A stretch of DNA of 40,000 nucleotides from an uncultured Acidobacteriaceae bacterium (GTDB taxonomy: Bacteria > Acidobacteriota > Terriglobia > Terriglobales > Acidobacteriaceae), in the NCBI GenBank assembly GCA_963816575.1, contig CAWFLH010000008.1:91089-131088 (forward strand), written 5' to 3'. Below the pieces are notes generated by a model, which was given only the letters and a program-made list of their open reading frames with translations, did no database searches and was not told where the DNA came from. This document shows positions 19,538-40,000 of the stretch, piece by piece. The translations under genes and the position numbers were made by a program. Within the stretch, counting starts at the first letter, position 1. Each line of letters opens with the position of its first letter.

Positions 19538-20962
19538 TCATGGCATCACGACGAATGGCCTGTTGCTGGTCAGCGTGCCGGCGGAGGTCGTTACTGTGAC
19601 GAAGCCTGTCGTCGCTCCCGCTGGAACTGTAGCCTTCACATAAGTCCCGGAGACGACCGTCGCCGTGGAAGGCATTCCATTAAAGGAAACCGTAGTTGCG
19701 GAGGTGAAGCCTTGTCCCAAGATCTCGACAAAACTTCCCACCTTGGCCATAAATGGCACCGTGCTTACGAATGCAGGCACGCTGCCGCCCCAACTGTAGA
19801 CGACACCGCAACGAGCGCACGCGCCGCCTTCATCGGTAACTCCATACAAGAACCCATTCGTGTTCTGGAATGGGGTATAGGGATAGGCTCCCGTGGTGAC
19901 ATCGAAACTATGGAGAACCGAGAAACCGCCAGCTGGAGTGACTTGAAACAGAGTGCCGCAACCGCTTCCGTTGCAGAACGGACTGCTGCCGCCCATGCCG
20001 GTGGCACCGTAGAAATTTCCGTCAGTGGCCTGTATTACGCTGGTAAGTGGAGATGTCCCATCCGTCGGGCTCATGTTGTAGAGGACAGTCGGGACACCGC
20101 TGGGTGTGATCTTGAAAACCACTCCAGCGCCTCCGCTTGCAAAAGCCGTCCCGTAGAAGTTCCCATCGCTACCCTCAACCAGGGGGCCGTGGGGGCTGTC
20201 GAAGGTTTCGGCACCAAAGTTATAGAGCACAGTCACCAAAGTCGCCTTGCCCGGGCGATATGTGACCCGATAAAACACCCCGCCACCCGCGGTCCCTCCG
20301 CTCTCGGTCGTCCCATAGAAATTTCCATCTGTGCCCAGAACCAGCGCATCAGGCTGGCAACCGTTCGGGCCGCCAAAGTCGTGCAAGAGGGCAAAGACGC
20401 CGTTAGTGATTCTGTAGATCGTGCCACAACCCGAAGGCAGCCCCAAACCTGCAGCCACGCCGTAGAAACTTCCGTCCGGACCCAGGATGGGCGGGTCCAA
20501 AGGGGCACCCCCGTCCGTGCCACCCGTGAAGTTGTAGATGGTGGTGAGGCTTCCGGTTTGCGTGATGTCGAATATAGTTCCCCAATTATGGGCTCCCCCC
20601 GTCGAAGTGACCCCAAGAAAGTGTCCGTCCGCGCGGAGAATCAACCCGCCGTCAGGATCCGAGCCGTCGGCGCAGTTCGATTGCGAGCAAAAGTTGTATA
20701 GAACTTGGGCCCGCCCTTCGGCAGTTACCTTGAATACCGCACCACGCGCGTATGTCCCTCCTTCAGAACTCGTAATGTACAGGCTGCCGTCTCGACCCTG
20801 CGCTATCCGGCCCGCAGGCTCTGTGGGACCTCCACTTACGATTTGGTACAACACGGAAAAGTTCTGCGCATATGTGGGCGTGGGTGCGCACATCGCGATC
20901 AGGCTTAGAACGGCCAAAACATGTAGCCGATAGCTCTTGATTCTCGTCATCATTGAGGTCAT
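19538..20962 (-). CDS. Secreted GloVer (Gloeo_Verruco) tandem-repeat protein with a C-terminal IPT/TIG domain
   Basis: Signal peptide (LHVLAVLSLIAMCAPTPTYAQ). It has about 9 repeats of the pattern DG..P...LI...[10 protein letters not shown]....G(T/V)(I/V)F(K/R)(I/V)T..G..T.L..F. The C-terminus (FVSTVPFMAKVGSFVEILGQGFTSATTVSFNG...ATVPAGATTGFVTVTT) is typical IPT/TIG. Confidence 0.8.
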   Translation of the reverse strand: MTSMMTRIKSYRLHVLAVLSLIAMCAPTPTYAQNFSVLYQIVSGGPTEPAGRIAQGRDGSLYITSSEGGTYARGAVFKVTAEGRAQVLYNFCSQSNCADGSDPDGGLILRADGHFLGVTSTGGAHNWGTIFDITQTGSLTTIYNFTGGTDGGAPLDPPILGPDGSFYGVAAGLGLPSGCGTIYRITNGVFALLHDFGGPNGCQPDALVLGTDGNFYGTTESGGTAGGGVFYRVTYRPGKATLVTVLYNFGAETFDSPHGPLVEGSDGNFYGTAFASGGAGVVFKITPSGVPTVLYNMSPTDGTSPLTSVIQATDGNFYGATGMGGSSPFCNGSGCGTLFQVTPAGGFSVLHSFDVTTGAYPYTPFQNTNGFLYGVTDEGGACARCGVVYSWGGSVPAFVSTVPFMAKVGSFVEILGQGFTSATTVSFNGMPSTATVVSGTYVKATVPAGATTGFVTVTTSAGTLTSNRPFVVMP

Positions 20963-25701: not shown

Positions 25702-26043
25702 AATCTATCGTTATTGTACCCTTGGCGGTCCCGTTGGCAGCCGATCTAATGGCTGGCGCTTCCCCCCGGGGGGACACCGTTCAGAGAGCGGCCCGGGAGC
25801 CCCAACCCGCGGCGGTAGGACTGACCGTCCGGTTTGACGGGTAGGATGTGGCAACGGGAAAAACGGCTCCACCCCTCTTCTTGACGCATATCGCAGTTCA
25901 ATTGGATTTTGTGGATAGAATTGCGATGAGAATGAGTGGCTTTGCAGGTTTCCACGAAATTTCCGGCAACGTTTCCCCCAGCTTCACGACAATGCGCATG
26001 AATAGTGCCGACCTAGTAAACCTCCTGGAGAGACTCTCGGTTC

Positions 26044-27441
26044 TCAGAGGACTAGGAAGACAACGTTGCTGGAGAGTGTTCCGGTCGGCGTGGTCACTTC
26101 AACAGTACCCGTCGTTGCACTGCCTGGAACAGTCGCAGAAATTTCGGTAGGCGAAACAACCGTAAATGCTGCAACCTTGCCGTTGAAGGTTACTTTAGTG
26201 GCACCGTTTAGATCAGTCCCGAGAATAAAGATTTGTGCTCCGGTGTAAGCCGCAGCGGGCACTGTTTTCACGAAAGGAGCAAGGCCCAGAGACAACCTGA
26301 ACACTGTGCCGTATAGGTGCTGTCCATTAAACCCGTTCGTGGTTCCGTAAAAGCTGCCGTCGGTGCCCTGCACCAATCCCACTAACGGGTTCATACCGTC
26401 GGTCTTGGTGAACTCGTGCAGAACGGTAAACGTTCCACCCGGCGTAAGCTGGAAAATCATCCCGCAATTACTACCACTGCATTCTCCACCTGCGCCAATG
26501 CCCGGCGTTGTTCCATAGAAGTTCCCATCAGTACCTTGAATCAGCGCCGCATGGCTCGGCCCTCCGATTCCACTGAAGCTGTAAAGCGAGGTGAGTGAAC
26601 CCTCTGGCGTAATCTTATAGATCTGTCCCCGCCCATTCTTTCCTCCTCCGGAAGTTCCATAGAAGTTTCCATCTGTCGCTTGAATCAACGCGGAGGTGGG
26701 GCCTTCACCATCGGTAGAGTTGAAGACATCGAAAGTGGTCAGATGGCCGGCGGTACCAATTTTGAAGAAAGTACCGCAACCAATGTTGTCCTCACACAAT
26801 GGATTGGAGCCACCAGAGAGAGTTGTGCCATACAAAAATCGATCGGCGCCCTGAATAAGTCCCACGACCGGATCATTCCCGTCGGGGCAACCCTTAGTTT
26901 GGCAAAATGTGTGCAGCGTGCTAGCAGCACCTCCCGGCGTCAGCGCGAAGACCGCACCTCCGTATACGCCACCTGGGGGGGCCGTGCCGTAGAAGTTTCC
27001 ATCAACGTAATCCTGAATTAACCCTGCTGGAGATCCGATGCCGGTGCTCAGAGTGGTCAGAGAGCCGCTCTTGAGCTCGAAAAAGGTCGTATGGCTCCCG
27101 TCGGCGAAATAGGTGAGGCCGTAGAAGTCTCCATTGGCGGCCAGCACTAGCCCTTGAGGCCCTCCGCCGTCGGTACCGTCGAACTTAACCACGGTCGTGA
27201 GATTACCGCTAGGAGTAATCTTGAAAATCGTGCCCCAGCCGCCGACGCCCCCTATTCCGCCTCCCAGGGTCGTTCCATAGAAATTTCCGTCTGGTGCCTG
27301 GACCAGCGCGGTGGGGTAGGCTCCGTCGGTGATATCAAAGGTCGCCAGATTGGTGAACGTTTGTGCAGGCGATGATATCGCGGCGGCTACTACTGCAAAG
27401 AGGACGACGCAAGGAGTCCTTAGCGTACGAAACGGAGTCAT
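26044..27441 (-). CDS. Secreted GloVer tandem-repeat protein with a C-terminal IPT/TIG domain (paralog A)
   Basis: Track ORF 26044..27486, trimmed to ATG 27441 (GGAGGG upstream), which gives the signal peptide MTPFRTLRTPCVVLFAVVAAAISSPAQT. It has repeated [10 protein letters not shown]...GTIFKITPSG.LTT units. The C-terminus is VKTVPAAAYTGAQIFILGTDLNGATKVTFNGKVAAFTVVSPTEISATVPGSATTGTVEVTTPTGTLSSNVVFLVL. Confidence 0.82.
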   Translation of the reverse strand: MTPFRTLRTPCVVLFAVVAAAISSPAQTFTNLATFDITDGAYPTALVQAPDGNFYGTTLGGGIGGVGGWGTIFKITPSGNLTTVVKFDGTDGGGPQGLVLAANGDFYGLTYFADGSHTTFFELKSGSLTTLSTGIGSPAGLIQDYVDGNFYGTAPPGGVYGGAVFALTPGGAASTLHTFCQTKGCPDGNDPVVGLIQGADRFLYGTTLSGGSNPLCEDNIGCGTFFKIGTAGHLTTFDVFNSTDGEGPTSALIQATDGNFYGTSGGGKNGRGQIYKITPEGSLTSLYSFSGIGGPSHAALIQGTDGNFYGTTPGIGAGGECSGSNCGMIFQLTPGGTFTVLHEFTKTDGMNPLVGLVQGTDGSFYGTTNGFNGQHLYGTVFRLSLGLAPFVKTVPAAAYTGAQIFILGTDLNGATKVTFNGKVAAFTVVSPTEISATVPGSATTGTVEVTTPTGTLSSNVVFLVL

Positions 27442-27620
27442 AACTTCCCTCCAAAACATGAGCATCCAAACGTGTGCCGCACACAACTTTCAACATACGG
27501 CCAATCTAATCACCCTCTATGTGTCCCATCTATAGTGGATTACATAGGAGTGTGGCCACGCCAATATATTCTCGTCCATTGCGGAAACGGCGTCAAGGTG
27601 AAGGATTTTGCGATAGTCTC

Positions 27621-27636
27621 CTAATTTCCACGACTG
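27621..27636 (+). repeat. Copy 1 of a degenerate direct-repeat motif (CTAATTTCCACGACTG) at the left edge of the island
   Basis: It shares ATTT..ACGACTG with copy 3 (with a 2-nt CC insertion). It starts 10 nt after the paralog-homology breakpoint. Confidence 0.3.
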
Positions 27637-28109
27637 TTTCTCTGATCGTCAGGTTCAGCGAAACTAGCATCCGCAAGCCAACTAGCGAAGCATCAACTAC
27701 AACCAATTGTGGGGCAGTCGTTTATCATGCGCGAATGTGACTGCCCGCCGTATAACTTGACAGGCATCTCAGCATGTGCGCATGTGGCAGCCCAGCGTAT
27801 GTACAAAAAGCGGGGGGATGAAAAGAAGAAACGAGGGGGACTGGCATAGGAAACAATCCCCAACAAATTCTTGTCGCTGATTGAATGCTGCCCTTAACGC
27901 AACACCTTGGGAAAGCCGAAAACTTCCGACCTTGCCACACGCGGTTCGACGCACTTCATTCAGTGCGGCATGTCTACTTCAATGGACTATTCCGCCTTTC
28001 GTAACAAACTGATATTTTGTTAGTTTCCCACACCATAGTCTGACAACATTCCGACCATTGCCTTCCGTTCGTCGAAGCGCGCGCGAGTCTGGATTGAAGT
28101 TACTATAAG

Positions 28110-29882
28110 ATGAGGTACATCATGATCAAGCTTTTGTGTGTTATCGGCTTTCTCTTGCTTTCGCTGAAAGCAGTCGGCCAGATCAATCTGACCCAAGGCG
28201 AGTCCGTCGGCGTTGGTGCAAATGGAGTATTGCTTTCCCGCCCCAACGAGTTTCATTCTGCGGATTTCACGAGCCCGACGTTGAACAGCCTTCTTTCCAC
28301 CTGCCCTTCGACTCCAACTCCTTGTATCTGGGATGTCGAGCCTTCTGCGACCCAGATCACCGTTCCGACAACGGCCACCATTGGGTCGGCCACGCAGCCG
28401 GTGACGGTCGATTCCGGCCTGTCTTTTCTGTTAACGGGCACCGGTGGAGATGGCATCGATATCGCGCAGTGGGGTGCGCTGAAATGCCGAGGCAACAAAG
28501 GGCCAGCATCGCCGTCGGTTGCTGGCTGCGAAATCCAACAAGCGAACACTTCCATCCTCAACTCGCTCGTCAGCAATGCCGACCAGGGCGCCGTTCCTCC
28601 GCAAAGCGATTTCATGCTGGAGGGCTACGCTGCCATTGGCAGTGCCGCGGGGACAACGTGCGGCGCAGGCTGCGTTGCTCCGCGGCTCAGCTGTGGCGTG
28701 CTCTGCATCATCGCGGTCGAAGGCAAGGGTGTCATCCGCGATAGCGCGTTCGGGCCAGCGGTCGGAGAAGTGGGCATGAATTTTCAGGATGCAGGAAGCG
28801 GTAGTTCGGCTGACAACAATGCTCTACTTATCGAGAACGTCGAATCCTTCTGTAGTCTCTACGTTCACTGTTTGCCGCTGAATATTTGGGGCGCGACCGG
28901 AACTGGAACCGGAAATGGATCGAATTACCTATTTTCGGCGAGCTCTTTCGTCGATACGGGAAGTTCGAATCCAAACGGCATAACATCATTTGCCAGCGGC
29001 CAATGTCTCGATACACAAGATTGCCTGGTTAACCTCGACGGGCAAAGCGGTTCAGGCATGGGCAACAATGTGATCGGCAGCATTACCTTCGACACCACCT
29101 ACTTTGAAAGCTCGACCTCTATGAGCACGACGGGAAGCTTCATGGAGGCAAATAATGTTCGCGGCTTAGCACTGAACAACGTGCGCTTCGATGGGGGTGC
29201 CGTTCTCACCAATTGCCTGACGATTTCCGGGACAAGTTTTGGCGCAAGTTGGGTAACGGGTCGGGTCTCAGCAAACAAATGCGGTACGAACATCAATAAC
29301 GAGATCACCGGTTATTCCCAATCCAACAGCTCCGGCGGCGATCTCATGTATTACTATCCTGGAACCAACAGTGCTGGTTTCGTGATCGACGGAAAAGAAA
29401 TTCTCAACGGCAGCTTAACGATTAGCAATGCGGCGGGAACGTCTCAAACCGCATTGTCAGTATCCGCGTCGGGCGGGACGCTCGATCTCGGCAGTACCAA
29501 CGCGACCGTGAGCTCTGCCGGAGCTCTCAAGGCGACCAGTTTCACCGCAACGAATCTTCTGTGCAGCACTACGGCTCCCACCATTTCCTCCGGCTTTGGC
29601 AGTGCACCAAGCATCACCAACAACGGCAACTGCTCCTTCTCGATAAATGTCGGATCTGGCACCATTACGAACCCTGGAGTGCTCACCTTCCCAGCCGCAG
29701 CTCACGGATGGCATGTGCACTGCGACGACATCACGACCACGTCCGCTACTAACTTCATTACCAAACAAACTGGCGCCGTATCTACGACCAGCGTAACATT
29801 AACAACCTTTACCACCGCGGCTCTGACCACGGGCACATGGACAGCAAGCGACATTTTGGAATGCAGCGCGGTTGCCAATTAA
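28110..29882 (+). CDS. Secreted hypothetical protein (590 aa), Gly/Ser/Thr/Asn-rich, possibly beta-helix/fibre-like; cargo of the island
   Basis: Long ORF with the signal peptide MIKLLCVIGFLLLSLKAVGQ. The more likely start is ATG 28122, which has GAGG 6 nt upstream. It has repetitive N/G/S/T turns (ALNNVRFDGGAVLTNCLTISG, LNGSLTISNAAG). No confident family assignment. Confidence 0.6.
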   Translation: MRYIMIKLLCVIGFLLLSLKAVGQINLTQGESVGVGANGVLLSRPNEFHSADFTSPTLNSLLSTCPSTPTPCIWDVEPSATQITVPTTATIGSATQPVTVDSGLSFLLTGTGGDGIDIAQWGALKCRGNKGPASPSVAGCEIQQANTSILNSLVSNADQGAVPPQSDFMLEGYAAIGSAAGTTCGAGCVAPRLSCGVLCIIAVEGKGVIRDSAFGPAVGEVGMNFQDAGSGSSADNNALLIENVESFCSLYVHCLPLNIWGATGTGTGNGSNYLFSASSFVDTGSSNPNGITSFASGQCLDTQDCLVNLDGQSGSGMGNNVIGSITFDTTYFESSTSMSTTGSFMEANNVRGLALNNVRFDGGAVLTNCLTISGTSFGASWVTGRVSANKCGTNINNEITGYSQSNSSGGDLMYYYPGTNSAGFVIDGKEILNGSLTISNAAGTSQTALSVSASGGTLDLGSTNATVSSAGALKATSFTATNLLCSTTAPTISSGFGSAPSITNNGNCSFSINVGSGTITNPGVLTFPAAAHGWHVHCDDITTTSATNFITKQTGAVSTTSVTLTTFTTAALTTGTWTASDILECSAVAN

Positions 29883-29914
29883 AGTGAAGCATCAGTAACT
29901 CCGTTTTATGGTTG

Positions 29915-29946
29915 GAGAAACGAGGCTGATTCACCGATTGCGACTA
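29915..29946 (+). repeat. Copy 2 of the direct-repeat motif (GAGAAACGAGGCTGATTCACCGATTGCGACTA)
   Basis: The 21-nt core CTGATTCACCGATTGCGACTA matches copy 3 (CTGAATCACCATTTACGACTG) at 16/21 positions. A shared GAGAAA lies 2-5 nt upstream. It sits between the cargo gene and cas1. Confidence 0.35.
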
Positions 29947-30235
29947 CAGCTTTATTGGCCGGCGATATGGCTGACGGTCTGGTTGCTGGGGCTCTCGGTC
30001 GCAATCGTGGACGTGACTTTACGCCACAACTGGTGCGGGGAGATTAAGGCAGTCCTATGGCGAACCATGCTGGCGGCGATTGTCGCGAGTGAAACGGTAC
30101 TGGCCTCGTGTGGCGGAGGTAGGGCGTATCCATGGCGTGCGCCCAAGCCACCGCGTAGTGGTTGTATGCCTCCAGGCCGCCTAGCTTGTCGATTCGTTCA
30201 GTGAGAAATGGTTAATAGGTCGGGTTAGCTTTGAT

Positions 30236-31777
30236 TTAACTTTCATCGCCCGACACCCCAACCAGGGCCGCCAGCGTCTGCCAGTGCCTCGAATGCGGTC
30301 GGCGTCGGCCCGCACGGATGGCAACGGCATACGTCACAGAAACACCTAGCGCCGACATAATGACCGGGTTCGCGATTCCAGCCAGTAGCGGCTGAATCTT
30401 TCGCGAGTAGACTTCCTCGTTGAGCCAGGTTGGGAGGCTCGACGGCTGCCATTCTTTCTTCGCGAGGGCGTGCTGCCGCTGTGTCTGCGCCCGACGCGCC
30501 TTCGGACCGGGGGCTTGGCTAGCCACGCGTCCGATCTTGGCAATCTCCACAATTCGCTCACGAGCTGTCGTAGCGTCACACTCGGAACAATAACTTCGTC
30601 CAAACGAGATCGATGTCCCGCAAACGCGACAAATACTCTCCGGCTGTGGTGCGGTTTTGGTCGGTGGAAATGATGGATGCCCCTTCGCTTCGCGCTTGTT
30701 GCGCTGCGTAAGGCGTGTCGCGATCATCTTGGATGTGGAAGTTGGTTTTGACACGGAAGACCAAATCTCCTGCGCAACATATTCCGCGATCGGGGCCACT
30801 AATCTGCGCCACGTGTCCGAAGTCTCGCAGAGCTTGATTGCCAATGCTGAAGAAATGCGGCAGTTCCCATTGCGATCCTCCCAAAAGTCCGATTTACGAA
30901 GGGGCTCGCTCTGAAGCCAGTTCAAGACGAACGCGTCAACTCCGCCCGGCCTGCAAACTTCCATCAAATCGCAGGCGAGTGAGTCTCTGTTGGGCGTGTC
31001 CATGTGGAGAAAGCCCTGCCCCACGTCTAAGCCCATGGCAGTCGCGGCTAGTCTGGCTTCCGCCTCTAGCAGCGAGTAGACGAAATTTAACAAGGCGTTA
31101 CTGGGTGAGGCCGCTAGCCGTGGACTGTGTGTAATGGGAGAGATTCGCGACCCAAACTTTTTCCAGTGGCCAGGAACGAGCTTTTCATCCTTGCGGGGCC
31201 AGAGGATTGGAATATCCGCCCACGAATGCCAATACAATTTGGCAGCCTGTGCCTCAATGAGGGTAACCCTCTCAACGCTCTCGGCGCTCGGTAAAGTGCT
31301 TCTGAATCGAGCAATTGCGTCCGCCGTCGAAGGATCGTGCAGCATGTCGCGCACTAGTAACTCCTGCCCGGCGAGTTTCTGCGAGATGAGTTCTTTAGAA
31401 ATCTTGAGCGCCGTCCCGTTGCCGAGTGCGAGCGCTTGCGCCCTGCGGAGTTTGGAATCCGACGGAGTGACCGGGCCGGTGACGACGAGCACCTTGCCTC
31501 TGCGATCAAGCATCAAGAATGATGCGCCCGCGTCAGAGATCCAGCGGAGCGCCTCAAGGGTGACGAAACCGTCACTTCCGATTAGCACTAATCTTTTCAG
31601 ACCATGATTCACGCGGGGTAGGCGGATCGTTCGGCGCTCGTCTGCGATTCCGTCGTGCAGAAGCAGATGACCGGCGTCGACTTTGATGCGAATTCCCCAT
31701 CCATTCAAAACGAGGACGCCCGATTTGCGGATGGAGTGCGAGTGCGATAGGTTTGGCGAAGCCGTCATGGAGCTCAT
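30236..31777 (-). CDS. cas1: Cas1 homolog (solo Cas1 / putative casposase) with a C-terminal Zn-ribbon and basic tail
   Basis: 513 aa. The N-terminal beta domain reads VLVLNGWGIRIKVDAGHLLLHDG...LVLIGSDGFVTLEALRWISDAGASFLMLDRRGK. The catalytic helical domain has LIEAQAAKLYW and SPSNALLNFVYSLLEAEARLAATAMGLDVGQGFLHMDTPNRDSLACDLMEVCRP (Cas1 E...H...D/E signature). The C-terminal extension has CRVCGTSISFGRSYCSEC and an Arg/Lys-rich helical tail. No cas2 or CRISPR array is nearby. Confidence 0.85.
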   Translation of the reverse strand: MSSMTASPNLSHSHSIRKSGVLVLNGWGIRIKVDAGHLLLHDGIADERRTIRLPRVNHGLKRLVLIGSDGFVTLEALRWISDAGASFLMLDRRGKVLVVTGPVTPSDSKLRRAQALALGNGTALKISKELISQKLAGQELLVRDMLHDPSTADAIARFRSTLPSAESVERVTLIEAQAAKLYWHSWADIPILWPRKDEKLVPGHWKKFGSRISPITHSPRLAASPSNALLNFVYSLLEAEARLAATAMGLDVGQGFLHMDTPNRDSLACDLMEVCRPGGVDAFVLNWLQSEPLRKSDFWEDRNGNCRISSALAIKLCETSDTWRRLVAPIAEYVAQEIWSSVSKPTSTSKMIATRLTQRNKREAKGHPSFPPTKTAPQPESICRVCGTSISFGRSYCSECDATTARERIVEIAKIGRVASQAPGPKARRAQTQRQHALAKKEWQPSSLPTWLNEEVYSRKIQPLLAGIANPVIMSALGVSVTYAVAIRAGRRRPHSRHWQTLAALVGVSGDES

Positions 31778-32214
31778 ATCTCCTCAGCGGTCAGGGCTGT
31801 TTGCCTGCTCTAACAGGTGGGCAGCCCGCTTAACTTAAGTTTTCTATATTCTATTACTTACAAGCGCATCCGACAATGCGAAACTGTGCGCAGGAATGTG
31901 GATAAAAGCAAACTGTGGAAAACTGATGAATACTTTGGCTCGCCTGGGGCATCGAAGTTAGTAGCCTCTTTGCGCGAGTAGGGAGGACTATAGGACAGGT
32001 GAGAACCGGTCCCGAAGTGCAGTGCGGATGAATGTTACGTCCATGTAGTTACCACGACGAGTAGACCACGCCATTCCGCGCAATACCAGCCGGAGAAACA
32101 TCGTGGCGAGGACGCGAAAGAACTGGTAGGGCGGCTGAGACTCCAATATTTGCACTAGTCCCGAGCAAAAGTTCAAGGGCAAGATGACAATTTTTCCTTC
32201 GGGAGAAGTGTCAA

Positions 32215-32466
32215 ATGCCTGCCCTTCGAGTCGCCAATGCCGTCGCGCCAACCCAACCAACCGTAAGCGACAAGGTACTCCTCACCCGTGAGGAGTGTGC
32301 CGACATTCTCCGAATCCATATTCGGACCCTCGATGCGCTGCTCAAGGACGGAATTCTCCGTTTTAAGAGGGTAGGTAAACCACTCCGTGGCCGCGTCCTC
32401 GTACCGCGTGTAGAAATCGAGCGATTCCTTCAGGTGGACCAACCTGCCAAACGGCGGGTGAGGTGA
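32215..32466 (+). CDS. Helix-turn-helix DNA-binding protein (excisionase/MerR-like HTH_17 type)
   Basis: GGGAGAAG lies 6 nt upstream of the ATG. The motif is LLTREECADILRIHIRTLDALLKDGILRFKRVG. It is the first gene of the HTH-unknown-HNH-polB operon and is divergent from cas1. Confidence 0.65.
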   Translation: MPALRVANAVAPTQPTVSDKVLLTREECADILRIHIRTLDALLKDGILRFKRVGKPLRGRVLVPRVEIERFLQVDQPAKRRVR

Positions 32467-32469
32467 CCT

Positions 32470-32997
32470 ATGGCGCAGAAAAAGCTGCACTGGATCGCCT
32501 CAAAGGGCTACCGCGCACCTCGTCCATCCTCTTTAACCGAGGGACAACTAAAGACGCGCGCCGATGTACTGGCTGCTCACTCTGATATGTTGCGCGACCG
32601 CAACCTGACGGCATCCCAAGCCGCTTGGGATAACGGCGTCACGATCCGAGATTTCTGGAAATACATACCCAGAGCATTCACCAGGAACTCAAGTGGACGT
32701 ATTCGCGCTATAGCAGACCGCTACGTGAGAAGGCTGGAGATTCCCGGACGCGATGGTCCCGTCTTAGTCACCGTCAGAGGGTCCAAAGCTAAAGGTCAAC
32801 TTGCACGATTCCGCAATGATGTCTTCAGCTTTCTCGGTGGGGATCGTTCTGCGCTTGATAAATGGAAAGGCGTAACGATCCAGGGTCATGAGTTGCTGAC
32901 GGACCCCCACATTATTCGAACGCTGGGCGAGCAAGGCAATCTCCCTGAACATTTCGGCAGCGAGCAAGTTGTTCCGTACTCCGGCGGGGCCGCATGA
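32470..32997 (+). CDS. Hypothetical protein (175 aa) in the polB operon
   Basis: It starts 3 nt after the HTH stop, with GAGGTG upstream. Its stop overlaps the next start (ATGA at 32994-32997). No family was recognised. Confidence 0.55.
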   Translation: MAQKKLHWIASKGYRAPRPSSLTEGQLKTRADVLAAHSDMLRDRNLTASQAAWDNGVTIRDFWKYIPRAFTRNSSGRIRAIADRYVRRLEIPGRDGPVLVTVRGSKAKGQLARFRNDVFSFLGGDRSALDKWKGVTIQGHELLTDPHIIRTLGEQGNLPEHFGSEQVVPYSGGAA

Positions 32998-33302
32998 GAC
33001 GGTGCAATCTCTGTGGCACTACTCATGAGGTAACCCAACATCATGTCGGGGGACAACGTTTCATTGCGTGGTTCACGATGAGTCTCTGCGCCAAATGCCA
33101 AGTAATTTTCCACGCAAGACAACGTGCCGCTGGGATCAATTTGCGTTTCACTCCGGACGCCAGGATCAGATTGATTCGCGCATTGAAGATGACAGTACTC
33201 TTCATGTGGTTACTGCTCGACATGCTGGAAAGTGAAATTGGCTCGGAGATCAATGAAGCTAAGGCACTGCGTCAAGAATCTAACTCCGAGGATGGGAAAT
33301 GA
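32994..33302 (+). CDS. HNH-like endonuclease / Zn-finger protein (102 aa)
   Basis: CNLCG-x6-TQHHVGG-x12-LCAKCQVIFH resembles the CxxC...HH...CxxC/H HNH arrangement. There are ATGA overlaps on both sides (32994 and 33299). Confidence 0.5.
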   Translation: MRRCNLCGTTHEVTQHHVGGQRFIAWFTMSLCAKCQVIFHARQRAAGINLRFTPDARIRLIRALKMTVLFMWLLLDMLESEIGSEINEAKALRQESNSEDGK

Positions 33303-36300
33303 TTGAGACACACGATCTCTTCTTACGTGCGCTTGCGGTACCTATAGAGAAAAAGAAAAAGAAGAAAACCGCCAACACCGAGGACGATAACAATGTGCTG
33401 GACGAACCAACATGGCCGGATACAGTCCTGGCGTTCGATAGTGAGAGCCGGGTCACCGTAGACCAATCGCTCACGCTTAGCGTATGGCAGCGTTGCAGGC
33501 TGGTCGGGGGCGTGTATGAAGTAATCGAAGAGGGCATATTTCATGCCGGCGATCTGCCTGAAAGAGATTGCAAAGTCCTCAGAGCATATATGGAGACTGC
33601 GGTCTCCGATGTGCCAACCTTTCCACCTCGTTTTCCCCTCTACTCGCGTTCGCAGTTCATGAAAAAGGTATTTTGGCCCGCCCTTAAGAAAAACAGTTCG
33701 ATGGTTGTGGGTTTTAATCTCGGATACGATCTTTCCCGAATTGCCCTCGACTGGAAAGAAGGAAACAAAGGTGAATGGTCGCTCGTGCTGATGAAGTATG
33801 CCGATGGCAACGAGAACTGCAACTATCCACGCGTCCTGATAACACCTATTGATAGCAAGAAACAGATAATCAAGCTATGGCGACCGTGGAAAAAGAATCA
33901 ACACGAGTGGAAAGACTTAGGCAAAAAGATCCATTTCCTCGATCTTCGGACTTTGCTCTGGGCGCTTTACAACAAATCGCACTCGCTTCGGTCCGCCTGT
34001 GACAACAAACGCGGCCCCTTCAAAGAGCAGAACCTACCGCCAAAAGATGACCATGATCCCACTGGGGAAGTAACGCCAGATGAAATTGAGCACTGCCGGC
34101 AGGATGTCCGCTGCACTGTAGCACTCCTGAACGCTTGTAAGTTGGAATTCGATAAGCACTCCGATATCGATCTGAAGCCGTGGAATGCATACTCACCCGC
34201 GAGTATCGCCAAAGCTTACCTCGCGGCAATGGGCATAAAAAGGCCCTCTGTTAAGTTCAAAGCGCCGGACAAAAAGTTGGCCTCTTGGATTCAGTCCTAT
34301 TTTGGCGGGCGTTCGGAGTGCCGAATACGTCACGAGGTTGTTCCCGTAGTTCCGGTAGATTTCACCTCCGAGTATCCTTCTTGCTGCGCAAACATGGGCC
34401 TATTCAAATTTCTCACCGCTAAAAGTTTGAAGTTTGTCGATGACACAGCAAACATACGGCAGTTTGTCGCGAATATCACTCACGAACAGTGTTTTAGGCG
34501 TGATACATGGCACGATCTGAACTTTGTGGCCCGCTTAATCCCTGACGGAGACATCCTGCCCGTCAGGACTGTTTACGACGGCGTAAGCCATAATATCGGC
34601 AACAATTATTTATCTTCGAATCCTTCCCACCCAGAAGCCATTTATGTTGCAGGGCCCGATCTTGTCGCTGCAGTGATCCAGCAACCGGGAAAGATTCCCA
34701 ACATTCAACAAGCATTCAGGATCGTCCCCTGTGGCAAGCAGCCTGGAATGCGAGCCGTAAAACTTCGGGGAAAGGTTCTGATCGACCCTAACGATGATTC
34801 TGCTGACCTATTCACGAAAATCATTGAGGAGCGTAAACGCAATAAGAATGATCCCGATCTCTACTATTGGCTCAAGATTCTCGCCAATTCGATTTACGGA
34901 TTTTTCGTGGAACTCATTCCGGAGCACTTCAAACAACCGAAAAAAGTGATGGTGTTTTCTGGCGATGAGAGCTTTCCTGATTCCTCAAGAGTGATTGAAA
35001 GGCGAGGAAAATGGTTTGCGCCGTACTTGGCAACGCTCATCACATCCGCTGGAAGGCTCCTCTTGGCCATGCTGGAGGTGGAAGTGAAACGAGCAAGGGG
35101 CGCGTATCTATACTGCGATACCGACAGTCTAGCAGTTGTCGCATCGAAAAAAGGAGGCCCACTCCGCATTCCCGGAGCGCAAGGCGGGCGTATTTTGACC
35201 TGCGATGAGGTTGACGCAATCACCGCTAAATTCCAGGCACTCAATCCATACGATCCCGATACGGTGCCGGACCTCCTGAATCTCACGGACGACAATTACG
35301 TGTGCAAATGTTCGCATGAACTTAACGAGCATGACGACGCCGGAGTTTGTGAGGTGCATCGATGCCGCTGCATGGCAAGGAAAAAAGTGCGGCGGCAGCA
35401 ACTGTGGGGGATGGGCGTAGCCGCCAAACGATACGCTCTGTTTGAAAAACTACTCGCCAACAACGGGAAACTTGTCGATATTAGAATTGTCAATCCGAAA
35501 GCGCACGGCATCGGCTTCCTCTATCCGCCGAAAGACAATCCCAAGAATTGGAAAAATGACGCGCCACTGTGGGTTTTCGAGATGTGGGACTACATCGTGC
35601 GGGGATTTCTGGGATTACCGCGCAAACTACCCGCTTGGGCTTCGCGTCAACAAATGATGCGTTTCTCCGTATCCACTTGGAACGTCCTTAAGATGCTGGG
35701 CATGTGGGAGAGCGCACGTCCTAACAATTTCATGTTCATGGTAATGACCTCCGAGACATTTTCGTTTGACTTTGACTTTGACAATAAACCAAGCAAAAAG
35801 CCAATGGTAATCGTGCCGTTTTCGAGCAAACAAGATGAGTGGAACAAACTCGTAGGGATTGATATTCACAACAAGAACCGGCGCGGGACATACCGGCGTT
35901 ATCCGCTGGGCGATCCCTATTTCCACCCATTCACCTACGGGCACATGATGGAGGAATACACCCGGCACCCTGAGGCTAAGAGCCTGGGCTCGGATGGGAA
36001 GCCCTGCACAGCAGAAACTCGCGGGTTGCTGCAACGGGCGCACATTACCGCAGGACAAGTCCGCTATATCGACAAAGAGACCAGCTCAATGTGGGCGCAT
36101 AACGACGATCTCAGCGTGATAACAGATAACGATGAAGTCGGATTTAGGGTCGTCGAGTACGGGAAAAGCCGCAAAATTGCGCTTCTCGACTCATTGAAAT
36201 GTGAGATCCAGAGAACTAAATTACAACGCGAATTGCGACGCAGAGGAATTGGGCAGCACACGATTGAAAAAGCGCTGCACGCACATATACGCGTAAATAC

Positions 36301-36367
36301 CTACAAGAAAATCGTCGCCGCAATTGCAGAATTCAAAGAGGAAAAACAGAAACCAGAGAAATTCTGA
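33299..36367 (+). CDS. polB: Family B DNA polymerase with an intact 3'-5' exonuclease domain
   Basis: 1022 aa. ExoI is VLAFDSES, ExoII is VVGFNLGYDLSRI and ExoIII is EIEHCRQDVRCTVALL. Motif A is VPVDFTSEYPS (DxxSLYPS-like), motif B is LKILANSIYGFF (KxxxNSxYG), motif C is YLYCDTDSL (YxDTDS) and the KxY motif is VAAKRYALF. Confidence 0.9.
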   Translation: MIETHDLFLRALAVPIEKKKKKKTANTEDDNNVLDEPTWPDTVLAFDSESRVTVDQSLTLSVWQRCRLVGGVYEVIEEGIFHAGDLPERDCKVLRAYMETAVSDVPTFPPRFPLYSRSQFMKKVFWPALKKNSSMVVGFNLGYDLSRIALDWKEGNKGEWSLVLMKYADGNENCNYPRVLITPIDSKKQIIKLWRPWKKNQHEWKDLGKKIHFLDLRTLLWALYNKSHSLRSACDNKRGPFKEQNLPPKDDHDPTGEVTPDEIEHCRQDVRCTVALLNACKLEFDKHSDIDLKPWNAYSPASIAKAYLAAMGIKRPSVKFKAPDKKLASWIQSYFGGRSECRIRHEVVPVVPVDFTSEYPSCCANMGLFKFLTAKSLKFVDDTANIRQFVANITHEQCFRRDTWHDLNFVARLIPDGDILPVRTVYDGVSHNIGNNYLSSNPSHPEAIYVAGPDLVAAVIQQPGKIPNIQQAFRIVPCGKQPGMRAVKLRGKVLIDPNDDSADLFTKIIEERKRNKNDPDLYYWLKILANSIYGFFVELIPEHFKQPKKVMVFSGDESFPDSSRVIERRGKWFAPYLATLITSAGRLLLAMLEVEVKRARGAYLYCDTDSLAVVASKKGGPLRIPGAQGGRILTCDEVDAITAKFQALNPYDPDTVPDLLNLTDDNYVCKCSHELNEHDDAGVCEVHRCRCMARKKVRRQQLWGMGVAAKRYALFEKLLANNGKLVDIRIVNPKAHGIGFLYPPKDNPKNWKNDAPLWVFEMWDYIVRGFLGLPRKLPAWASRQQMMRFSVSTWNVLKMLGMWESARPNNFMFMVMTSETFSFDFDFDNKPSKKPMVIVPFSSKQDEWNKLVGIDIHNKNRRGTYRRYPLGDPYFHPFTYGHMMEEYTRHPEAKSLGSDGKPCTAETRGLLQRAHITAGQVRYIDKETSSMWAHNDDLSVITDNDEVGFRVVEYGKSRKIALLDSLKCEIQRTKLQRELRRRGIGQHTIEKALHAHIRVNTYKKIVAAIAEFKEEKQKPEKF

Positions 36368-36384
36368 ATCACCATTTACGACTG
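36356..36384 (+). repeat. Copy 3 of the direct-repeat motif (GAGAAATTCTGAATCACCATTTACGACTG), overlapping the polB stop codon
   Basis: See copies 1 and 2. The TGA at 36365-36367 lies inside the motif. Confidence 0.35.
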
Positions 36385-36499
36385 AGCAAGCTATCGGATC
36401 AATCTATGCAAGCCCATCGCTAAGGCAGCGACAACGAGCGCCACGGCTGCCAGGACGAACCGCGTCGGACCGACCAGCGCGGTGCGGCTTGCGAAAGAC

Positions 36500-37979
36500 T
36501 CAGAGGACTCGGAAGGGGACGTTGCTCGACAGCGTTCCGCCGGGTGTAACTACCCGCACCGTGCCCGTGGTGGCATTACCGGGGACAGTGGCCTGAATCT
36601 CAGTCGGCGACACGACAGTGAACACTGCGGTCTTGCCATTGAAGGTGACGCTGGTCGCGCCCGTCAGATTCGTCCCCAGGATTAGCACTTGGGTATGCGT
36701 GTAAGCGCCAGCAGGTACGGTCTTCACGAAAGGAGCAAGCCCCATCGACAACTGGAACACAGTGCCGTAGAGGTGCTGTCCGACGAAGCCGTTGGTCGTC
36801 CCGTAAATATTTCCATCGGTTCCCTGTACCAAAGCGGCGGCAGGGTTCATCCCGTCCGTCTTGTCGAAGCTATGCAGTGTGGTGAGCGTGCCATCGGGCG
36901 TTACCTGAAAGATGCTGCCGCAATTGTTGCCACTGCAGGCGCCTTTGTAACCGATCCCTGAGGTCGTCCCGTAAAAATTTCCGTCGGTAGCCTGGATCAG
37001 CGCGGTGAGGGGATTTCCACCGTCTGTGCCATCAAAGGTGTGAAGAGTGGTCAGCGCACCCGCAGGCGTCATTTTGAAGATCGTGCCGCAATAATATGGC
37101 GATGTATACAGGGCCGGGCAGGCCAAGTCCCTCCATTCTCGGTCGTTCCGTAGAAGTTCCCGTCGGTGCCCAAGGTCAGTCCGCCCATGGGGTCAGTACC
37201 ATCCGTGAGTAAATTGAATTGGTGGAGAATGTTTAGAGCGCCTTCGGTACCGATTTTGAAGACAACCCCAGCATATGCTGGGCCGCCACCACTAGTTGTT
37301 GTACCGTAGAGGACTCCGTTGTTGGCCTGCACCAGCTGAGCCGCAGGGAAAATTCCATCGGCGCATTTTGCTAAATTGCAAAAGTTGTATAAGACAGTCA
37401 GAGTGCCGCTTGGGCTGATTTTGAATACCGTGCCGCAGCCAGGGTAGTCCTCACACTTCTTCGTGGGCGAGCCGCCGTAGGGCGCTGTCCCATAAAAATT
37501 TCCGTCAATCGTGTCTTGCATTAGGGGCGGGAAAATAGGCATAGAAGTGCCGCTGCCGCCCAGGCCGGAGGAGTTGCTGTAGAGGGTTGAGAACGCGCCT
37601 TCGGGAGTAATCGCGTAGACCGTGGTATGCGGAGACTCGTAGCCCATCGTCACGCCGTAAAGGTTCCCGTTTGCAGCGAGTATTAGTCCGGCCTGTGGCC
37701 ACGATCCGTCAGTGCCCACAAACTCATGCACGGTTGTGAACGTGCCTGCCGGAGTGATCTTGAAAACCGTCCCGCAGCCGTTGTAACAGATTCTCTGCCG
37801 CCCTCCCATGTCGTGCCGTAGAAGTTGCCATCGAGTCCCTGGACAAGAGCCCCGTAGGGAAAGCTGCCGTCGCTGTTTTCAAAAGTGTGCAGAGTAGTGA
37901 AGGTTTGCGCCTGCGAGGCAATCCCTGTCGCCCACCACAGCGCGAATATCAACCATGCCGTCTTCCATCTGCAAGCCAT
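36500..37979 (-). pseudogene. GloVer tandem-repeat / IPT-TIG exoprotein, paralog B, disrupted by at least two frameshifts
   Basis: Three overlapping track ORFs in three frames (37683..38138, 37069..37809, 36500..37126) together encode one GloVer protein. It has a signal peptide ([26 protein letters not shown], from ATG 37979). The frame changes at about 37,790-37,810 (...[11 protein letters not shown] | ...[15 protein letters not shown]) and at about 37,100-37,130 (...GNFYGTTENGG | ...LACPALYTSPYYCGTIFKMTPAG). The C-terminus is closely similar to paralog A. Confidence 0.75.
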
Positions 37980-38306
37980 AAAAACATTCCTCTCACGATT
38001 CGAAAAACATAGCCCTACGCTATATAGCATAGGCGCGAGGGAACGTGGCGTCAACGGGAAGGATTTTGCATCATCAATACGCAGCAATGGGCATTGCGAG
38101 AGCGAAAATTTAACGCTCATACCGGAACGTCTGCACAAGTCCTAAGTTAGGTCAATTTTCGCTCCATATCTTCATCTTCGTTCAGTGTTGCCGGGGCATT
38201 ACAAAATTAAGAACACAACCAATTTATTACAAATCACTCCTCGTAACTATGGTAGTGTGATTCGAACCTTCGACTGTAACTGTGGACGAAGAGGGAGGTG
38301 CTATAT

Positions 38307-40000
38307 ATGGGACCTCAGGTACATGAGACTCTTGCTGCGCGATGGGATTCAAACTATAAATCACAATATAAGATCAAGAGGTTTTTTGTCTTCTTGTTTA
38401 GCCTAGCCGTTTTTTGTATTCTCACTAACGCATTAGCCCAAACAGCTGGGGTCTGGGGATAAGTGGTCCCCGGCCCTGGATTGACGTTACCGGCCCGAAT
38501 TGTGGCTCCTCGGCTGGGTTCTGTGGCGCAGATCCCTGCAGGTGTGAATCCTTCTGCGACTGCAATCTCAAATCTTTTGGGCCTGGCATGTGCAAGTTTA
38601 AGAGTTGGCTCTTTTTGCCTCCTGGGACCTGTACAGGCCGGATCTGGTAGGTACCCACGGGGTACCTGCACCCTTTTGCAGGTCTCGTTGCTTGCGGCGG
38701 AGTACACATCGTCAAGAGCGTCGGCACTACAAGCTCATTCCCCAGCAACAATGGGTCGTTTGTCATTACCAGTTCGCAATTCACATTGAAAAATATCGAG
38801 TATGACGGAAACAACGGCAGCTTCAGCGGCCCATGCATCACAGTGACCAGCCCGAGCGCTACGCCGCCCCAGATTTCCGACATCGTGATTGAGGATAATT
38901 ACATTCACAACTGCGACGGGCAATCAATTACGCTGACCTCCGGGCTTAGCTACACTTACTCCGGCCCGCTGCGCACGCATATCCGACGCAACCGCATTGT
39001 TGGCGGCGCTAGCGAACAGCCGATTCTGATCCAAGGCTCCGTCAACGATATCGACATCATCGACAACTTTATTGACGGAACCAACTGCACCAGCTGCGGC
39101 AGCACACTCGGGACGATCAATGCAGAAGCGCAGGGTGTGGGTGCGATTTCCTGTCCCGCGAACGGCCTCAGCACCGGCGCGTGCATCACGAACCTACGGA
39201 TCAAGCACAACAAGATCTACTGCACAACGGCATGGTGTATTCAAGCAGGCAGCTTCGGCGGCAACCAGATGACCGGTCTGCAGATCGAAGACAACGATCT
39301 GGAACTGTTTCAATCGACGACGCAGGGATTCGTATCCGTCGTAGCCGCGGGCGCCCAGATAACCGGTAATACGATGAACAATCACTACACCGATCTCGGC
39401 TACAACCACACGTTCTTCGCAATCGAAAATGCCGAGTCGACCGGAACGGTGATTACAAATAACATCTGCTACTGCGAAAACTCAGGTGCGGGGGGATTCC
39501 TAACGATAGACGGCGGCAAAGATGTGATCGCAACCGGAAACCACGTCTACGGCTTCGGTGAAGCTTCGGGCATCGGGATTACGATGGACAACAGCACTTT
39601 GGTGCCCGCAACGATCGCGACGATCGCGGAGACAGGCTATGTCGTCACGGTCACCATGTCGGGAACCTTCCCCACTCAGATACAGCCAGGGGTCGCGGTT
39701 GCTATTTGCACGAACGCCACAATCACCGCAATGGCCTGTCAGTCATCCGCCGGTACCGCCTACGGTCCGACAACCGTCATCAACCAGAATTACTCCCAAA
39801 GCTCAAAGACGTTTTCTTATCTCAGTCCTACTACTGGACTTTCTTGCTCGTCTTTGTGCGGCGGCGTTGCTCTCGCTACAGTGTACAACCGAGTGAGCCA
39901 GAACACGATTCAGATGCCGCTCGGAAATGCGCTCACGGCGTCGATCTACGCATTGCAGTACCGAAACGTCACAGACGCCAGCTACATCTACGGCAACACC
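38307..40000 (+). pseudogene. Right-handed beta-helix repeat exoprotein, apparently disrupted (frameshift plus in-frame TAG), 3' partial at the window end
   Basis: This ORF is absent from the ORF track because it has no stop in the window. ATG 38307 (AGGGAGGTG upstream) opens a 51-aa frame with a signal peptide (KRFFVFLFSLAVFCILTNALAQTAG) and ends at TAA 38460-38462. The body continues in another frame from 38429 (..PWIDVTGP...LFLPPGTC..), hits TAG at 38648-38650, and is then open from 38651 to 40000. It has beta-helix turns (IVIEDNYIHNCDG, IRRNRIVGG, DIIDNFIDG, LRIKHNKIYC, LQIEDNDLE, VITNNICYCEN). Confidence 0.5.

Follow-up and report, generated by a model that had tools for sequence, protein, structure and literature searches.

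The cas1 Locus

The stretch of DNA considered here, hereafter called the window, comprises 40,000 nucleotides (nt) of contig CAWFLH010000008.1 (assembly GCA_963816575.1), and the gene that concerns us lies at positions 30236..31777 on its minus strand. This gene has an ATG start and codes for a protein of 513 amino acids (aa) in which a Cas1 domain is followed by a C4 zinc module, a basic helical linker and an XRE-type helix-turn-helix (HTH). On the opposite strand, across a short intergenic region, lies a four-gene operon that includes polB, the gene of a family B DNA polymerase (PolB), 1.5 kb from cas1. Of the terminal features expected of a casposon, the window contains one terminal inverted repeat (TIR) and one copy of a presumed 14-bp target site duplication (TSD), whereas both features are complete in the closest element found and in 33 further insertions. 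We consider it very probable (about 0.9) that 30236-31777 encodes the casposase of an integrated, family 3-related casposon of ~15 kb in an acidobacterial host, a member of a lineage whose 14-bp TSDs lie at the −35 box of predicted promoters. Casposons are the proposed ancestors of the adaptation machinery of CRISPR systems.

The window displays two of the traits by which casposons are recognized, namely linkage of cas1 to polB and the lack of association with a CRISPR array or with other cas genes. No CRISPR-like array, no tRNA and no CRISPR repeat RNA family was detected in the 40-kb window, none of the window open reading frames (ORFs) scanned gave another cas-family match, and no cas genes occur in the gene lists of ten related loci (L001-L010). 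Relatives of the protein were sought in prokaryotic genomes, each species being represented by a single genome, and 261 genomic stretches were found to encode casposase relatives; the counts out of 79 loci given below refer to the best 79 of these 261 stretches. A search of a protein collection with the casposase gave 3,275 matches, the best 120 of which provide the figures on homolog length and identity, and 26 of these 120 were aligned.

The Cas1 Domain

The Cas1 catalytic domain spans residues 27-312 (30842..31699, minus strand) and matches the Pfam family PF01867 (Cas_Cas1) with an E-value of 1.5e-38 and a score of 133 bits (cut-off 22.3); the generic cas1 model TIGR00287 is also passed, with 106.2 bits for a cut-off of 71.7. 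In E. coli numbering, the catalytic residues of Cas1 are E141, H208, D218, and D221. An earlier note on this DNA, made from the sequence alone, had described a Cas1 homolog that keeps the catalytic signature and had suggested an active integrase rather than a relic. All of the motifs that it quoted are present, and their coordinates on the minus strand were verified by translation: E175 lies in LIEAQAAKLYW (31253-31255), H258 in GFLHMD (31004-31006), and both D270 (30968-30970) and E273 (30959-30961) in ACDLMEVCRP, the segment from H258 to E273 reading HMDTPNRDSLACDLME (30959-31006). These four residues are invariant among the 26 aligned family members and share their columns with the E/H/D/E residues of nine reference casposases (families 1-3) and two CRISPR Cas1 proteins, the reference alignment being that of the supplement of Krupovic et al. 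(2014; PMC4046053). Proper alignment hence reveals no substitution of the catalytic residues, an outcome that the note itself had named as refuting its claim. The protein is an integrase of the Cas1 family in which the catalytic tetrad is intact, a casposase rather than a relic. The full invariant tetrad also excludes membership of Cas1-solo group 1, which is inactive and has an incomplete catalytic set.

The best 120 homologs are 450-528 aa long, nearly all of them ~505-520 aa, and share 67-96% identity with the window protein at 98-99% coverage; most of the 79 loci match through to residue ~506-513 and a few are truncated. These lengths bear on the idea, also raised in the note, that the C-terminal 165 aa could belong to a separate gene fused to cas1 by an error of sequencing or assembly. 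This idea, which had nothing in its favor beyond being possible a priori, is refuted: nearly every one of the best 120 protein clusters has a single ORF of ~505-520 aa, as do most of the 79 loci, which come from many independent assemblies and reach down to 49% identity, and conserved residues span the junction.

Comparison with reference proteins places the enzyme among casposases. The closest reference by BLAST is the AceAut-C1 casposase (44% identity over 290 aa, E = 5e-70), followed at 28-37% identity by three further family 3 casposases (2.6e-64 to 7.9e-46) and by HenMar-C1 (5.8e-26), the best family 3 matches being AceAut-C1, S. spinosa, S. albulus, and NitAL212. Family 2 casposases match at E-values of 3e-31 to 5e-24 with 26-31% identity, family 1 at 1e-16, and CRISPR Cas1 proteins at 5.5e-7 and 0.002. 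In a small neighbor-joining tree, built without bootstrap and covering casposase families 1-3, the casposase falls inside family 3 as sister to AceAut-C1. Its best relative of solved structure is 6opm (E = 4.4e-23, residues 12-327), which outranks the Archaeoglobus CRISPR Cas1 4n06; under its deposition name of “CRISPR-associated endonuclease Cas1,” 6opm corresponds to the structure of the casposase of M. mazei with DNA that was published by Hickman et al. (2020; PMC6977970). The same phrase, “CRISPR-associated endonuclease Cas1,” is the source annotation of members of the present family. As a protein, it is a family 3-type casposase with the domain order published for AceAut-C1.

Could the gene instead encode an ordinary Cas1 of CRISPR adaptation, with its array and partner cas genes elsewhere in the genome? 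The annotation of family members and the passing of TIGR00287 would fit this explanation. However, the models of CRISPR-subtype Cas1 (I-B, I-C, I-D, I-E, II, V, and the I-G fusion) all score the casposase far under their cut-offs (e.g., cas1_DVULG, 90 for a cut-off of 385; cas4g_cas1g, 99 for 560), and the window has no array and, among the ORFs scanned, no other cas match. Moreover, E-values are 10^40- to 10^60-fold closer to casposases than to CRISPR Cas1, 67 of the 79 loci also contain a homolog of polB, which as a rule lies 2-5 kb upstream of cas1, and TIRs and TSDs bracket the elements. A CRISPR adaptation Cas1 is effectively refuted.

The C-Terminal Tail

Beyond the Cas1 domain, the note had described a C-terminal extension of ~165 aa bearing four cysteines and Arg/Lys-rich helices. 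This description holds: the four cysteines, C383, C386, C397, and C400 (CxxC-x10-CxxC), are invariant both in the 26-member alignment and in an alignment of the tail (residues 345-513) of 17 family members, and the tail counts 26 K+R residues vs. 11 D+E over 168 aa (10 vs. 4 over residues 401-453). The tail is composed of a C4 zinc module, CRVCGTSISFGRSYCSEC (30578..30631, minus strand, coordinates verified), then a basic helical linker (residues ~401-442; 30452..30577, minus strand), and finally a helical domain with an XRE-type HTH (residues 454-506; 30260..30418, minus strand, coordinates verified).

The evidence for these assignments comes from profiles and from structure prediction. When the 17 tails were scanned one by one against Pfam, the CxxC-x10-CxxC region gave sub-threshold matches to zinc-ribbon and treble-clef families only (DZR, matched by 15 of the 17 members, Zn_ribbon_15, and DUF2116, a “probable treble clef”), while the tail profile matched in the PDB the zinc finger of ribosomal protein eL37 (E = 0.003). 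For the region of residues ~476-512, HTH_31 matched 13 of the 17 members (best E = 4.9e-7) and HTH_3 matched 12 (best 1.2e-5). The 26-member alignment contains, further, an invariant C-terminal block, G490..P494-H495..R497-H498-W499..A503, which falls within a near-invariant GVS..Y...IR.G...PH.RHW..LA block inside the HTH-bearing domain. An AlphaFold2 (AF2) model of the C-terminal fragment has a mean predicted local distance difference test score (pLDDT) of 80.6, rising to 90-95 over the last 60 residues; it places two short strands around the first CxxC, has the second CxxC cap a long helix, and continues with two long basic helices (fragment residues 54-76 and 79-98, pLDDT 82-90), which form the linker, and four short helices. 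Foldseek searches of the PDB with the model gave as top matches exclusively HTH domains of the XRE/lambda-repressor/C-protein/SinR type, with probabilities of 0.7-0.89 and target-normalized TM-scores (template modeling) of at most 0.64.

On two points these results part from the earlier description. The “Zn-ribbon” named there stands as a conserved C4 module, whereas its class as a ribbon is doubtful: with the second CxxC capping a long helix in the model, the module may be treble-clef-like rather than a classical ribbon, and metal binding is a prediction. The suggestion that a basic helical tail might take the place of the casposase HTH, as a variation on that theme, also has to be abandoned, since the tail itself ends in an XRE-type HTH and zinc module and HTH are both present. 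Nor is the combination new, for as early as 2014 the Cas1 domain of AceAut-C1 was described with a zinc-binding domain (ZBD) as well as an HTH attached C-terminally (“Cas1-Zf” in the supplement; Krupovic et al., 2014; PMC4046053). The PolB, the TIR and the element around the gene had gone unmentioned in the note. The XRE-type HTH showed no detectable match in sequence or fold to the HTH of the M. mazei casposase (family 2), and no alignment was obtained between the casposase HTH and the PolB C-terminus, a similarity published for family 2.

A search with the tail profile recovered 3,246 representative clusters, of which 253 had E-values of 1e-30 or lower and 1,499 had E-values of 1e-10 or lower. 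Many of the top matches are short, and the existence of a stand-alone Zn-HTH family of ~200 aa was considered and rejected. About half of the short matches run colinear with the C-terminal part of casposases, and the others have N-termini that are heterogeneous, of low complexity and mutually unconserved, an internally deleted cas1 being among them; we read such short Zn-HTH proteins as decayed or fragmentary casposase genes. At high scores, the Zn-HTH module is, in these searches, specific to the present casposase lineage. Among the representatives P0121-P0270 of clusters at 50% identity with Zn-HTH, many are truncated, frame-shifted or internally deleted casposases, P0155 having Cas1 residues ~74-139 fused straight to the zinc module; these broken representatives point to a large graveyard of dead copies.

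Element Ends and a Near-Identical Copy

The left end of the element, on the cas1 side, is formed by a TIR of 40 nt, GGGTAGGATGTGGCAACGGGAAAAACGGCTCCACCCCTCT (25839..25878, plus strand), which occurs once in the window. It is abutted by the left copy of the presumed TSD, CCGTCCGGTTTGAC (25825..25838, plus strand; reverse complement GTCAAACCGGACGG), a sequence that fits the rule of the family that TSDs start with GTCAA or end with TTGAC. The TIR is homologous to those of 33 other elements and resembles the published TIRs of NitAL212-C1 (GGGGTATGTTAACTTCTCCCAAACGCCGTACAC) and MetFor-C1 (GGGTAATAGTTATCCCGAAAAAATGCCACTC), which have the same layout; both of these elements have 14-bp TSDs, as does that of M. 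mazei.

The closest element, at locus L001, has a Cas1 96% identical to that of the window and a PolB protein that is 100% identical, and positions 30250-40000 of the window correspond to L001 11519-1777 at 98.7% nucleotide identity. In L001, a perfect inverted repeat of 40 nt (925-964 and 15659-15698), both arms of which are identical to the window TIR, surrounds 14.8 kb and is flanked on the outside by a perfect 14-bp direct repeat, TTTCTGGGTTTGAC. Mapped onto L001, the window element runs from 25839 to roughly 0.8 kb past the right window edge, for a total of ~15 kb, with cas1 internal, and its right end is expected to consist of an inverted copy of GGGTAGGATGTGGCAACGGG... followed by a second CCGTCCGGTTTGAC. 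An exact-match scan of metagenome contigs with the left flank and TSD recovered neither an empty site nor the right end.

Similarity between the two copies stops at the cas1 stop codon (window 30236-30250 vs. L001 11519-11533), and both copies keep the TIR. The intervening 4.4 kb between cas1 and the left TIR are variable cargo, composed in the window of genes for a TIG protein and a 590-aa protein, and in L001 of an IS110 fragment and genes for a RES toxin, a 314-aa protein and a P4 cII-like protein. A search for TIRs in the gaps beside cas1 and polB (27400-30400 vs. 36300-36620) gave at best 11 nt, which is at chance level. An insertion site common to the window and L001 on the polB side was considered and rejected, the shared 9.7 kb being wholly internal and the TSDs and orientations different. 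The elements of the window and L001 are independent recent insertions: their PolB proteins agree at 100% identity, but they have different TSDs and flanks and lie in opposite orientations relative to the target motif. Near-identical copies (98.7%) at different sites indicate recent mobility.

A Casposon Lineage in Terriglobia

The best 79 loci all belong to the Acidobacteriota, class Terriglobia, and their casposases share 49-82% identity with that of the window. In the related loci (L001-L089), 34 distinct insertions were delimited in which a pair of TIRs (32-140 nt, mostly 97-100% identical) surrounds cas1 and polB and is itself bordered by a perfect TSD of 14 bp. The elements whose cas1 is full-length measure 9.9-19.6 kb, and one is a deletion derivative of 5.2 kb. 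The TIRs of the lineage begin with GGG(G)T and have in common an internal AAAA.GC.AC.CCC block. The 5.2-kb element (L034, 8411-13604) has perfect TIRs of 39 nt and a 14-bp TSD, GTCAACGCATGCTA, its cas1 being cut after residue ~348 and no polB match being found in it; it is a non-autonomous deletion derivative. Insertion sequences (IS) of the IS256, DDE_Tnp_1, and DUF772 types occur in or beside polB at L007 (6077-7372), L008 (6249-7208), and L009 (7575-9002), and such insertions in several relatives imply that many copies are inactivated.

The window copy could then also be a dead or domesticated remnant, its Cas1 perhaps recruited for a host function. In keeping with such a fate, many relatives have decayed, whether by IS insertion in polB, by truncation or deletion of the casposase, or as in the 5.2-kb derivative; the right end of the window element lies beyond view, and two of its cargo genes are frame-shifted. 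On the other hand, cas1 and polB are full-length, the catalytic and zinc-binding residues are all intact, the left TIR is perfect, and PolB is 100% identical to that of a copy which has perfect TIRs and a perfect TSD elsewhere. A remnant is, in our view, improbable.

The open-access literature recognizes casposon families 1-4 and a proposed family 5 from hot springs, and describes bacterial casposons as few and “intergenic”; in 2016 there were “only a handful” of them (PMC4779613). Nothing relevant was found in open-access full text on casposons in Acidobacteria or Terriglobia. The elements appear to form a large and recently active casposon lineage, confined to Terriglobia among the loci examined and apparently undescribed.

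Target Sites and Tandem Arrays

All 34 insertions have a TSD of 14 bp (e.g., L012, 2900-2913; L008, 1150-1163), and the pentamer at its start is G-T-C-A-A in 29-33 of the 34. The target motif occurs in both orientations relative to the element (18 vs. 12). To place this motif in its context, 29 pre-insertion sites, representing 19 distinct sequence classes, were reconstructed. Read on the other strand, 27 of these 29 consist of nine nucleotides, then TTGAC-N, a spacer of 17 or 18 nt, and a hexamer of the form TAnnnT, mostly TAAGAT or TACACT and in some sites TATACT or TAAACT. Shuffled controls contained 1.1 such sites on average (maximum 5), and among 1,213 other occurrences of TTGAC in the same loci 4.9% had the hexamer at that spacing. 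A co-directional ORF of at least 250 aa begins 20-160 nt after TTGAC at 19 of the 27 sites, vs. a background of 22% for TTGAC sites in host flanks (p = 1.5e-7). The target looks like a complete σ70-type promoter upstream of a host gene, promoter status being predicted. The GTCAA pentamer of the TSD is then the −35 box (TTGAC) on the other strand, and the fifth base of this box is the last one to be duplicated. Since the spacer and the −10 box remain attached to one copy of the TSD, insertion does not destroy the host promoter.

The flanks of the insertions hold a second pattern. The promoter-distal flank opens with another casposon TIR at no fewer than 10 of the 29 sites, a crude test giving 15. 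Flanks with an adjoining TIR were seen at L009 (17915-17945), L012, L029, L031, L053, L055, and L088. L031, which is among the two sites that have no −10 box, shows TIR-like sequence on both sides, and its genome, OY970265.1 (L007, L031, and L046), contains at least three copies within 55 kb. From promoter-distal TIRs and clustered copies it follows that tandem casposon arrays, separated by 14-bp TSD copies, are common; in such arrays the promoter-adjacent element is bounded by intact TSDs.

Another account of these sites would have the casposase read GTCAA alone, the promoter context reflecting the survival of harmless insertions and the Zn-HTH tail binding the TIRs or regulating the element. 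In M. mazei just the first four TSD bases are invariant (PMC4779613), a promoter-preserving duplication would be selectively favored, and XRE HTH domains are typical of repressors. However, the −10-like hexamer at 17-18 bp in 27 of 29 sites vs. 4.9% of other TTGAC sites is enriched far beyond what simple avoidance of coding sequence would produce, insertions recur beside earlier ones on the promoter side, and other casposases require sequence outside the TSD (PMC6614799; PMC6977970). We regard the reading of GTCAA alone as less likely than not, though a serious alternative. The open-access literature yielded no paper on promoter-type target choice by casposons.

Other Genes of the Element

The first gene of the operon divergent from cas1 (32215..32466, plus strand) encodes an excisionase-type HTH protein of 83 aa (PF12728 HTH_17, E = 3.9e-7; PHROG 66, excisionase/regulator; TIGR01764), which is kept in L001-L006 and was detected in two of the 79 loci of the wider set. 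It is followed by the gene of a conserved accessory protein of 175 aa, p175 (32470..32997, plus strand), which has a homolog at the same position in 42 of the 79 loci and is probably an HTH protein, weak HTH_23/HTH_29 matches being found in three of nine members of its family (best 4.3e-4). The third product, p102 (102 aa; 32994..33302, plus strand), is rich in Cys and His and has a homolog directly upstream of polB in 25 of the 79 loci. Its family consensus, C..CGS...E.HH.GGRNH..W...LC..HH..FH, is HNH-like and suggests a nuclease of the HNH/His-Me-finger type; its profile gave weak sub-threshold matches to RecA_dep_nuc (4 of 11 members, 3.1e-4), DUF968, and HNHc_6, and no match in the PDB. 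Family 3 casposons have accessory HNH and HTH genes beside polB, and the order of p102 and p175 matches that of AceAut-C1, with weak profile matches.

The PolB of 1022 aa (33299..36367, plus strand) matches PF03175 (E = 2.9e-7) and the DNA polymerases of PHROG (E = 2.5e-9), and its sequence gave no match in the PDB. Its motifs comprise ExoI (FDSES, residue 46), ExoII (FNLGYD, 139), motif A (DFTSEYPS, 354), motif B (KILANSIYG), motif C (YCDTDS, 605), and KxY (KRY, 710). Motif C agrees, as far as a comparison of motifs goes, with the “PolB_CDTDS” cluster, which includes the PolB of the A. boonei casposon (Kazlauskas et al., 2020; PMC7544198). PolB proteins of this cluster go with casposons of families 2 and 3, whereas the PolB of family 1 is protein-primed. 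The C-terminal 95 aa (residues ~930-1022; 36080-36367, plus strand) have a weak, three-helix, HTH-like match to RecX_HTH2 (E = 3.5e-4), which recalls the PolB-HTH fusions of family 2 and family 3 casposons.

Cargo genes are found on both sides of this core. Between the TIR and cas1, a 480-aa repeat protein with a C-terminal IPT/TIG domain (26044..27486, minus strand; Pfam TIG, E = 1.1e-5) has no counterpart at the corresponding position of L001. A secreted-looking protein of 590 aa (28110..29882, plus strand) without a match in Pfam, PHROG or NCBIfam has no homolog in the 79 related loci and is for that reason assigned to variable cargo; an ORF of 98 aa between this gene and the cas1 stop (29908-30204, plus strand), without a family match, may not be a gene. 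Beyond polB, a TIG/repeat protein gene (36503..37979, minus strand; TIG, E = 5.4e-7) is split over three reading frames, as revealed by tblastn with its intact 493-aa ortholog in L001 (frames −3, −2, and −1). A homolog of a 733-aa L001 protein (38307..40000, plus strand; tblastn, 91% identity over residues 50-561) runs past the window edge and has a frame change near 38453-38585. The IPT/TIG repeat proteins have paralogs inside the casposon (26044-27486 and 36503-37979) and outside it (19538-20962), with 39-55% identity, and these share a repeated coding unit of ~37 nt (repeat family D1).

Outside the element, the window contains at 13330-13376 (plus strand) an Acido-Lenti-1 small RNA (Rfam RF01687; 44.2 bits for a cut-off of 37), whose presence speaks for the window being acidobacterial. 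Together with the source names of the nearest homologs, it indicates that the host is probably an acidobacterium related to Candidatus Sulfotelmatobacter.

Relation to Known Casposons

AceAut-C1 is the known element that comes closest to the one described here. Its published domain order of Cas1, zinc-binding domain and HTH is the same, its genes for PolB-HTH, an HNH ORF and an HTH protein are consecutive, its host is a bacterium, and its insertion is intergenic. The likeness of the tails rests on the published domain description, AceAut-C1 having been compared through its Cas1 domain only. The two elements differ in the phylum of their hosts, in their TIRs (602 nt in AceAut-C1 vs. 32-140 nt here), in their TSDs (15 vs. 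14 bp) and in cargo, which in the 20-kb AceAut-C1 is of another kind; for AceAut-C1, neither promoter targeting nor array formation has been reported.

The casposon of Nitrosomonas sp. AL212 (NitAL212-C1, family 3) has a Cas1 33% identical to that of the window, a 14-bp TSD, and both a ZBD and an HTH in its casposase; it measures 14.4 kb and has TIRs of ~35 nt starting GGGGTATG...CCAAACGCCGTACAC. Unlike in the window protein, the ZBD of its casposase is N-terminal, and its TSD, AGCCGGTACTGCCC, is devoid of GTCAA/TTGAC.

The M. mazei casposase (family 2, 6opm; Hickman et al., 2020; PMC6977970) has the same catalytic residues as that of the window, the TSDs likewise measure 14 bp and have a 5′ motif that is conserved (CGCA in M. 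mazei vs. GTCAA here), and the TIRs start similarly (GGGTA/GGGAT...AAAA). Its C-terminal HTH is essential, and an HTH is also present here. However, the two enzymes are 29% identical, and that of M. mazei has no zinc module, resides in an archaeal host and targets the 3′ end of tRNA-Leu or intergenic sequence.

A Possible Mechanism and Its Weaknesses

The M. mazei casposase acts as a tetramer in joining the 3′ ends of two TIRs across a target of 14 bp, and its integration activity is lost when the HTH is deleted (PMC6977970). By analogy, a dimer of dimers with the E-H-D-E active site would join the 3′-OH ends of two TIRs to target strands at positions staggered by 14 bp, and repair of the gaps would produce the 14-bp duplication. 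The element's own PolB would presumably replicate the casposon. Repeated use of the promoter-proximal TSD copy would generate tandem casposon arrays; if the −10 box is needed for recognition, only that copy would be reusable and arrays would grow in a polar manner. Recognition of the promoter could be direct, via the Zn-HTH tail, or could operate via promoter-bound RNA polymerase.

The role of the Zn-HTH tail is most likely the sequence-specific recognition of DNA, either in the promoter-like target or in the conserved core of the TIRs, GGGGT...AAAA.GC.ACCCC. That the tail reads the target specifically is a tentative proposal, to which we would give somewhat less than an even chance. The same reserve applies to the fuller account, in which an apparently undescribed and recently active Terriglobia lineage possesses an integrase with zinc module and XRE-type HTH that recognizes σ70-type promoters, spares them, and reuses the promoter-proximal copy to build arrays; we put it forward as possible, short of holding it probable.

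Integration by Cas1-Cas2 at the leader-repeat junction of CRISPR arrays offers a parallel. Both systems have the same catalytic fold and chemistry and duplicate a short sequence, the repeat or the TSD, and new casposon insertions seem to adjoin the promoter-bearing flank and to form polar tandem arrays, a polarity that we infer here from the anatomy of the flanks. In contrast to CRISPR, both Cas2 and a CRISPR array are lacking, self-replicating elements of 10-20 kb take the place of spacers, and the duplicated unit is 14 bp long.

Several points weigh against the reading of 30236-31777 as the casposase of a complete, promoter-targeting element. The right TIR and the second TSD copy lie past the window, and completeness of the window copy is deduced from L001; the two cargo genes that are frame-shifted in the window are intact in L001, which could reflect decay or indel errors of assembly. 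The AF2 model of the full-length casposase, computed from the 26-sequence alignment, has a mean pLDDT of 45 with values under 50 in the Cas1 domain, too poor for superposition, which leaves the active site to be judged by sequence. The HTH match of the window protein itself has an E-value of 0.026, its own Pfam matches for the zinc module and the HTH are under gathering thresholds, and the Foldseek E-values are weak (≥0.2), as expected for a domain of ~55 residues. PolB is classed by its motifs and a weak match to PF03175, and the putative assignments of p102 as HNH and of p175 as HTH are weak. As for the targets, their promoter function is predicted from sequence and gene position, the insertion sites are partly non-independent, some of the 19 classes being orthologous hot spots, and the reading of the target can only provisionally be ascribed to any part of the protein.

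Significance

The lineage comprises hundreds of copies in soil Acidobacteria, with near-identical copies at different sites, and offers a natural, data-rich system for asking how a Cas1 integrase picks its site and what the Zn/HTH tail does. Features that appear to be new are the large, Terriglobia-specific radiation itself, an XRE-type HTH without detectable similarity to that of family 2, a promoter-shaped target with 5′-GTCAA, and the frequency of arrays. If target specificity resides in the casposase, the protein would be a compact, sequence-directed integrase for cargo of 10-20 kb. The duplication that preserves the promoter would exemplify a “safe-harbor” strategy. The lineage may also bridge, in evolutionary terms, to the leader-proximal and polar mode of integration of CRISPR arrays: should promoter recognition and polar array growth hold true, these casposons would be a natural transposon counterpart of the leader-proximal, repeat-duplicating insertion of spacers.

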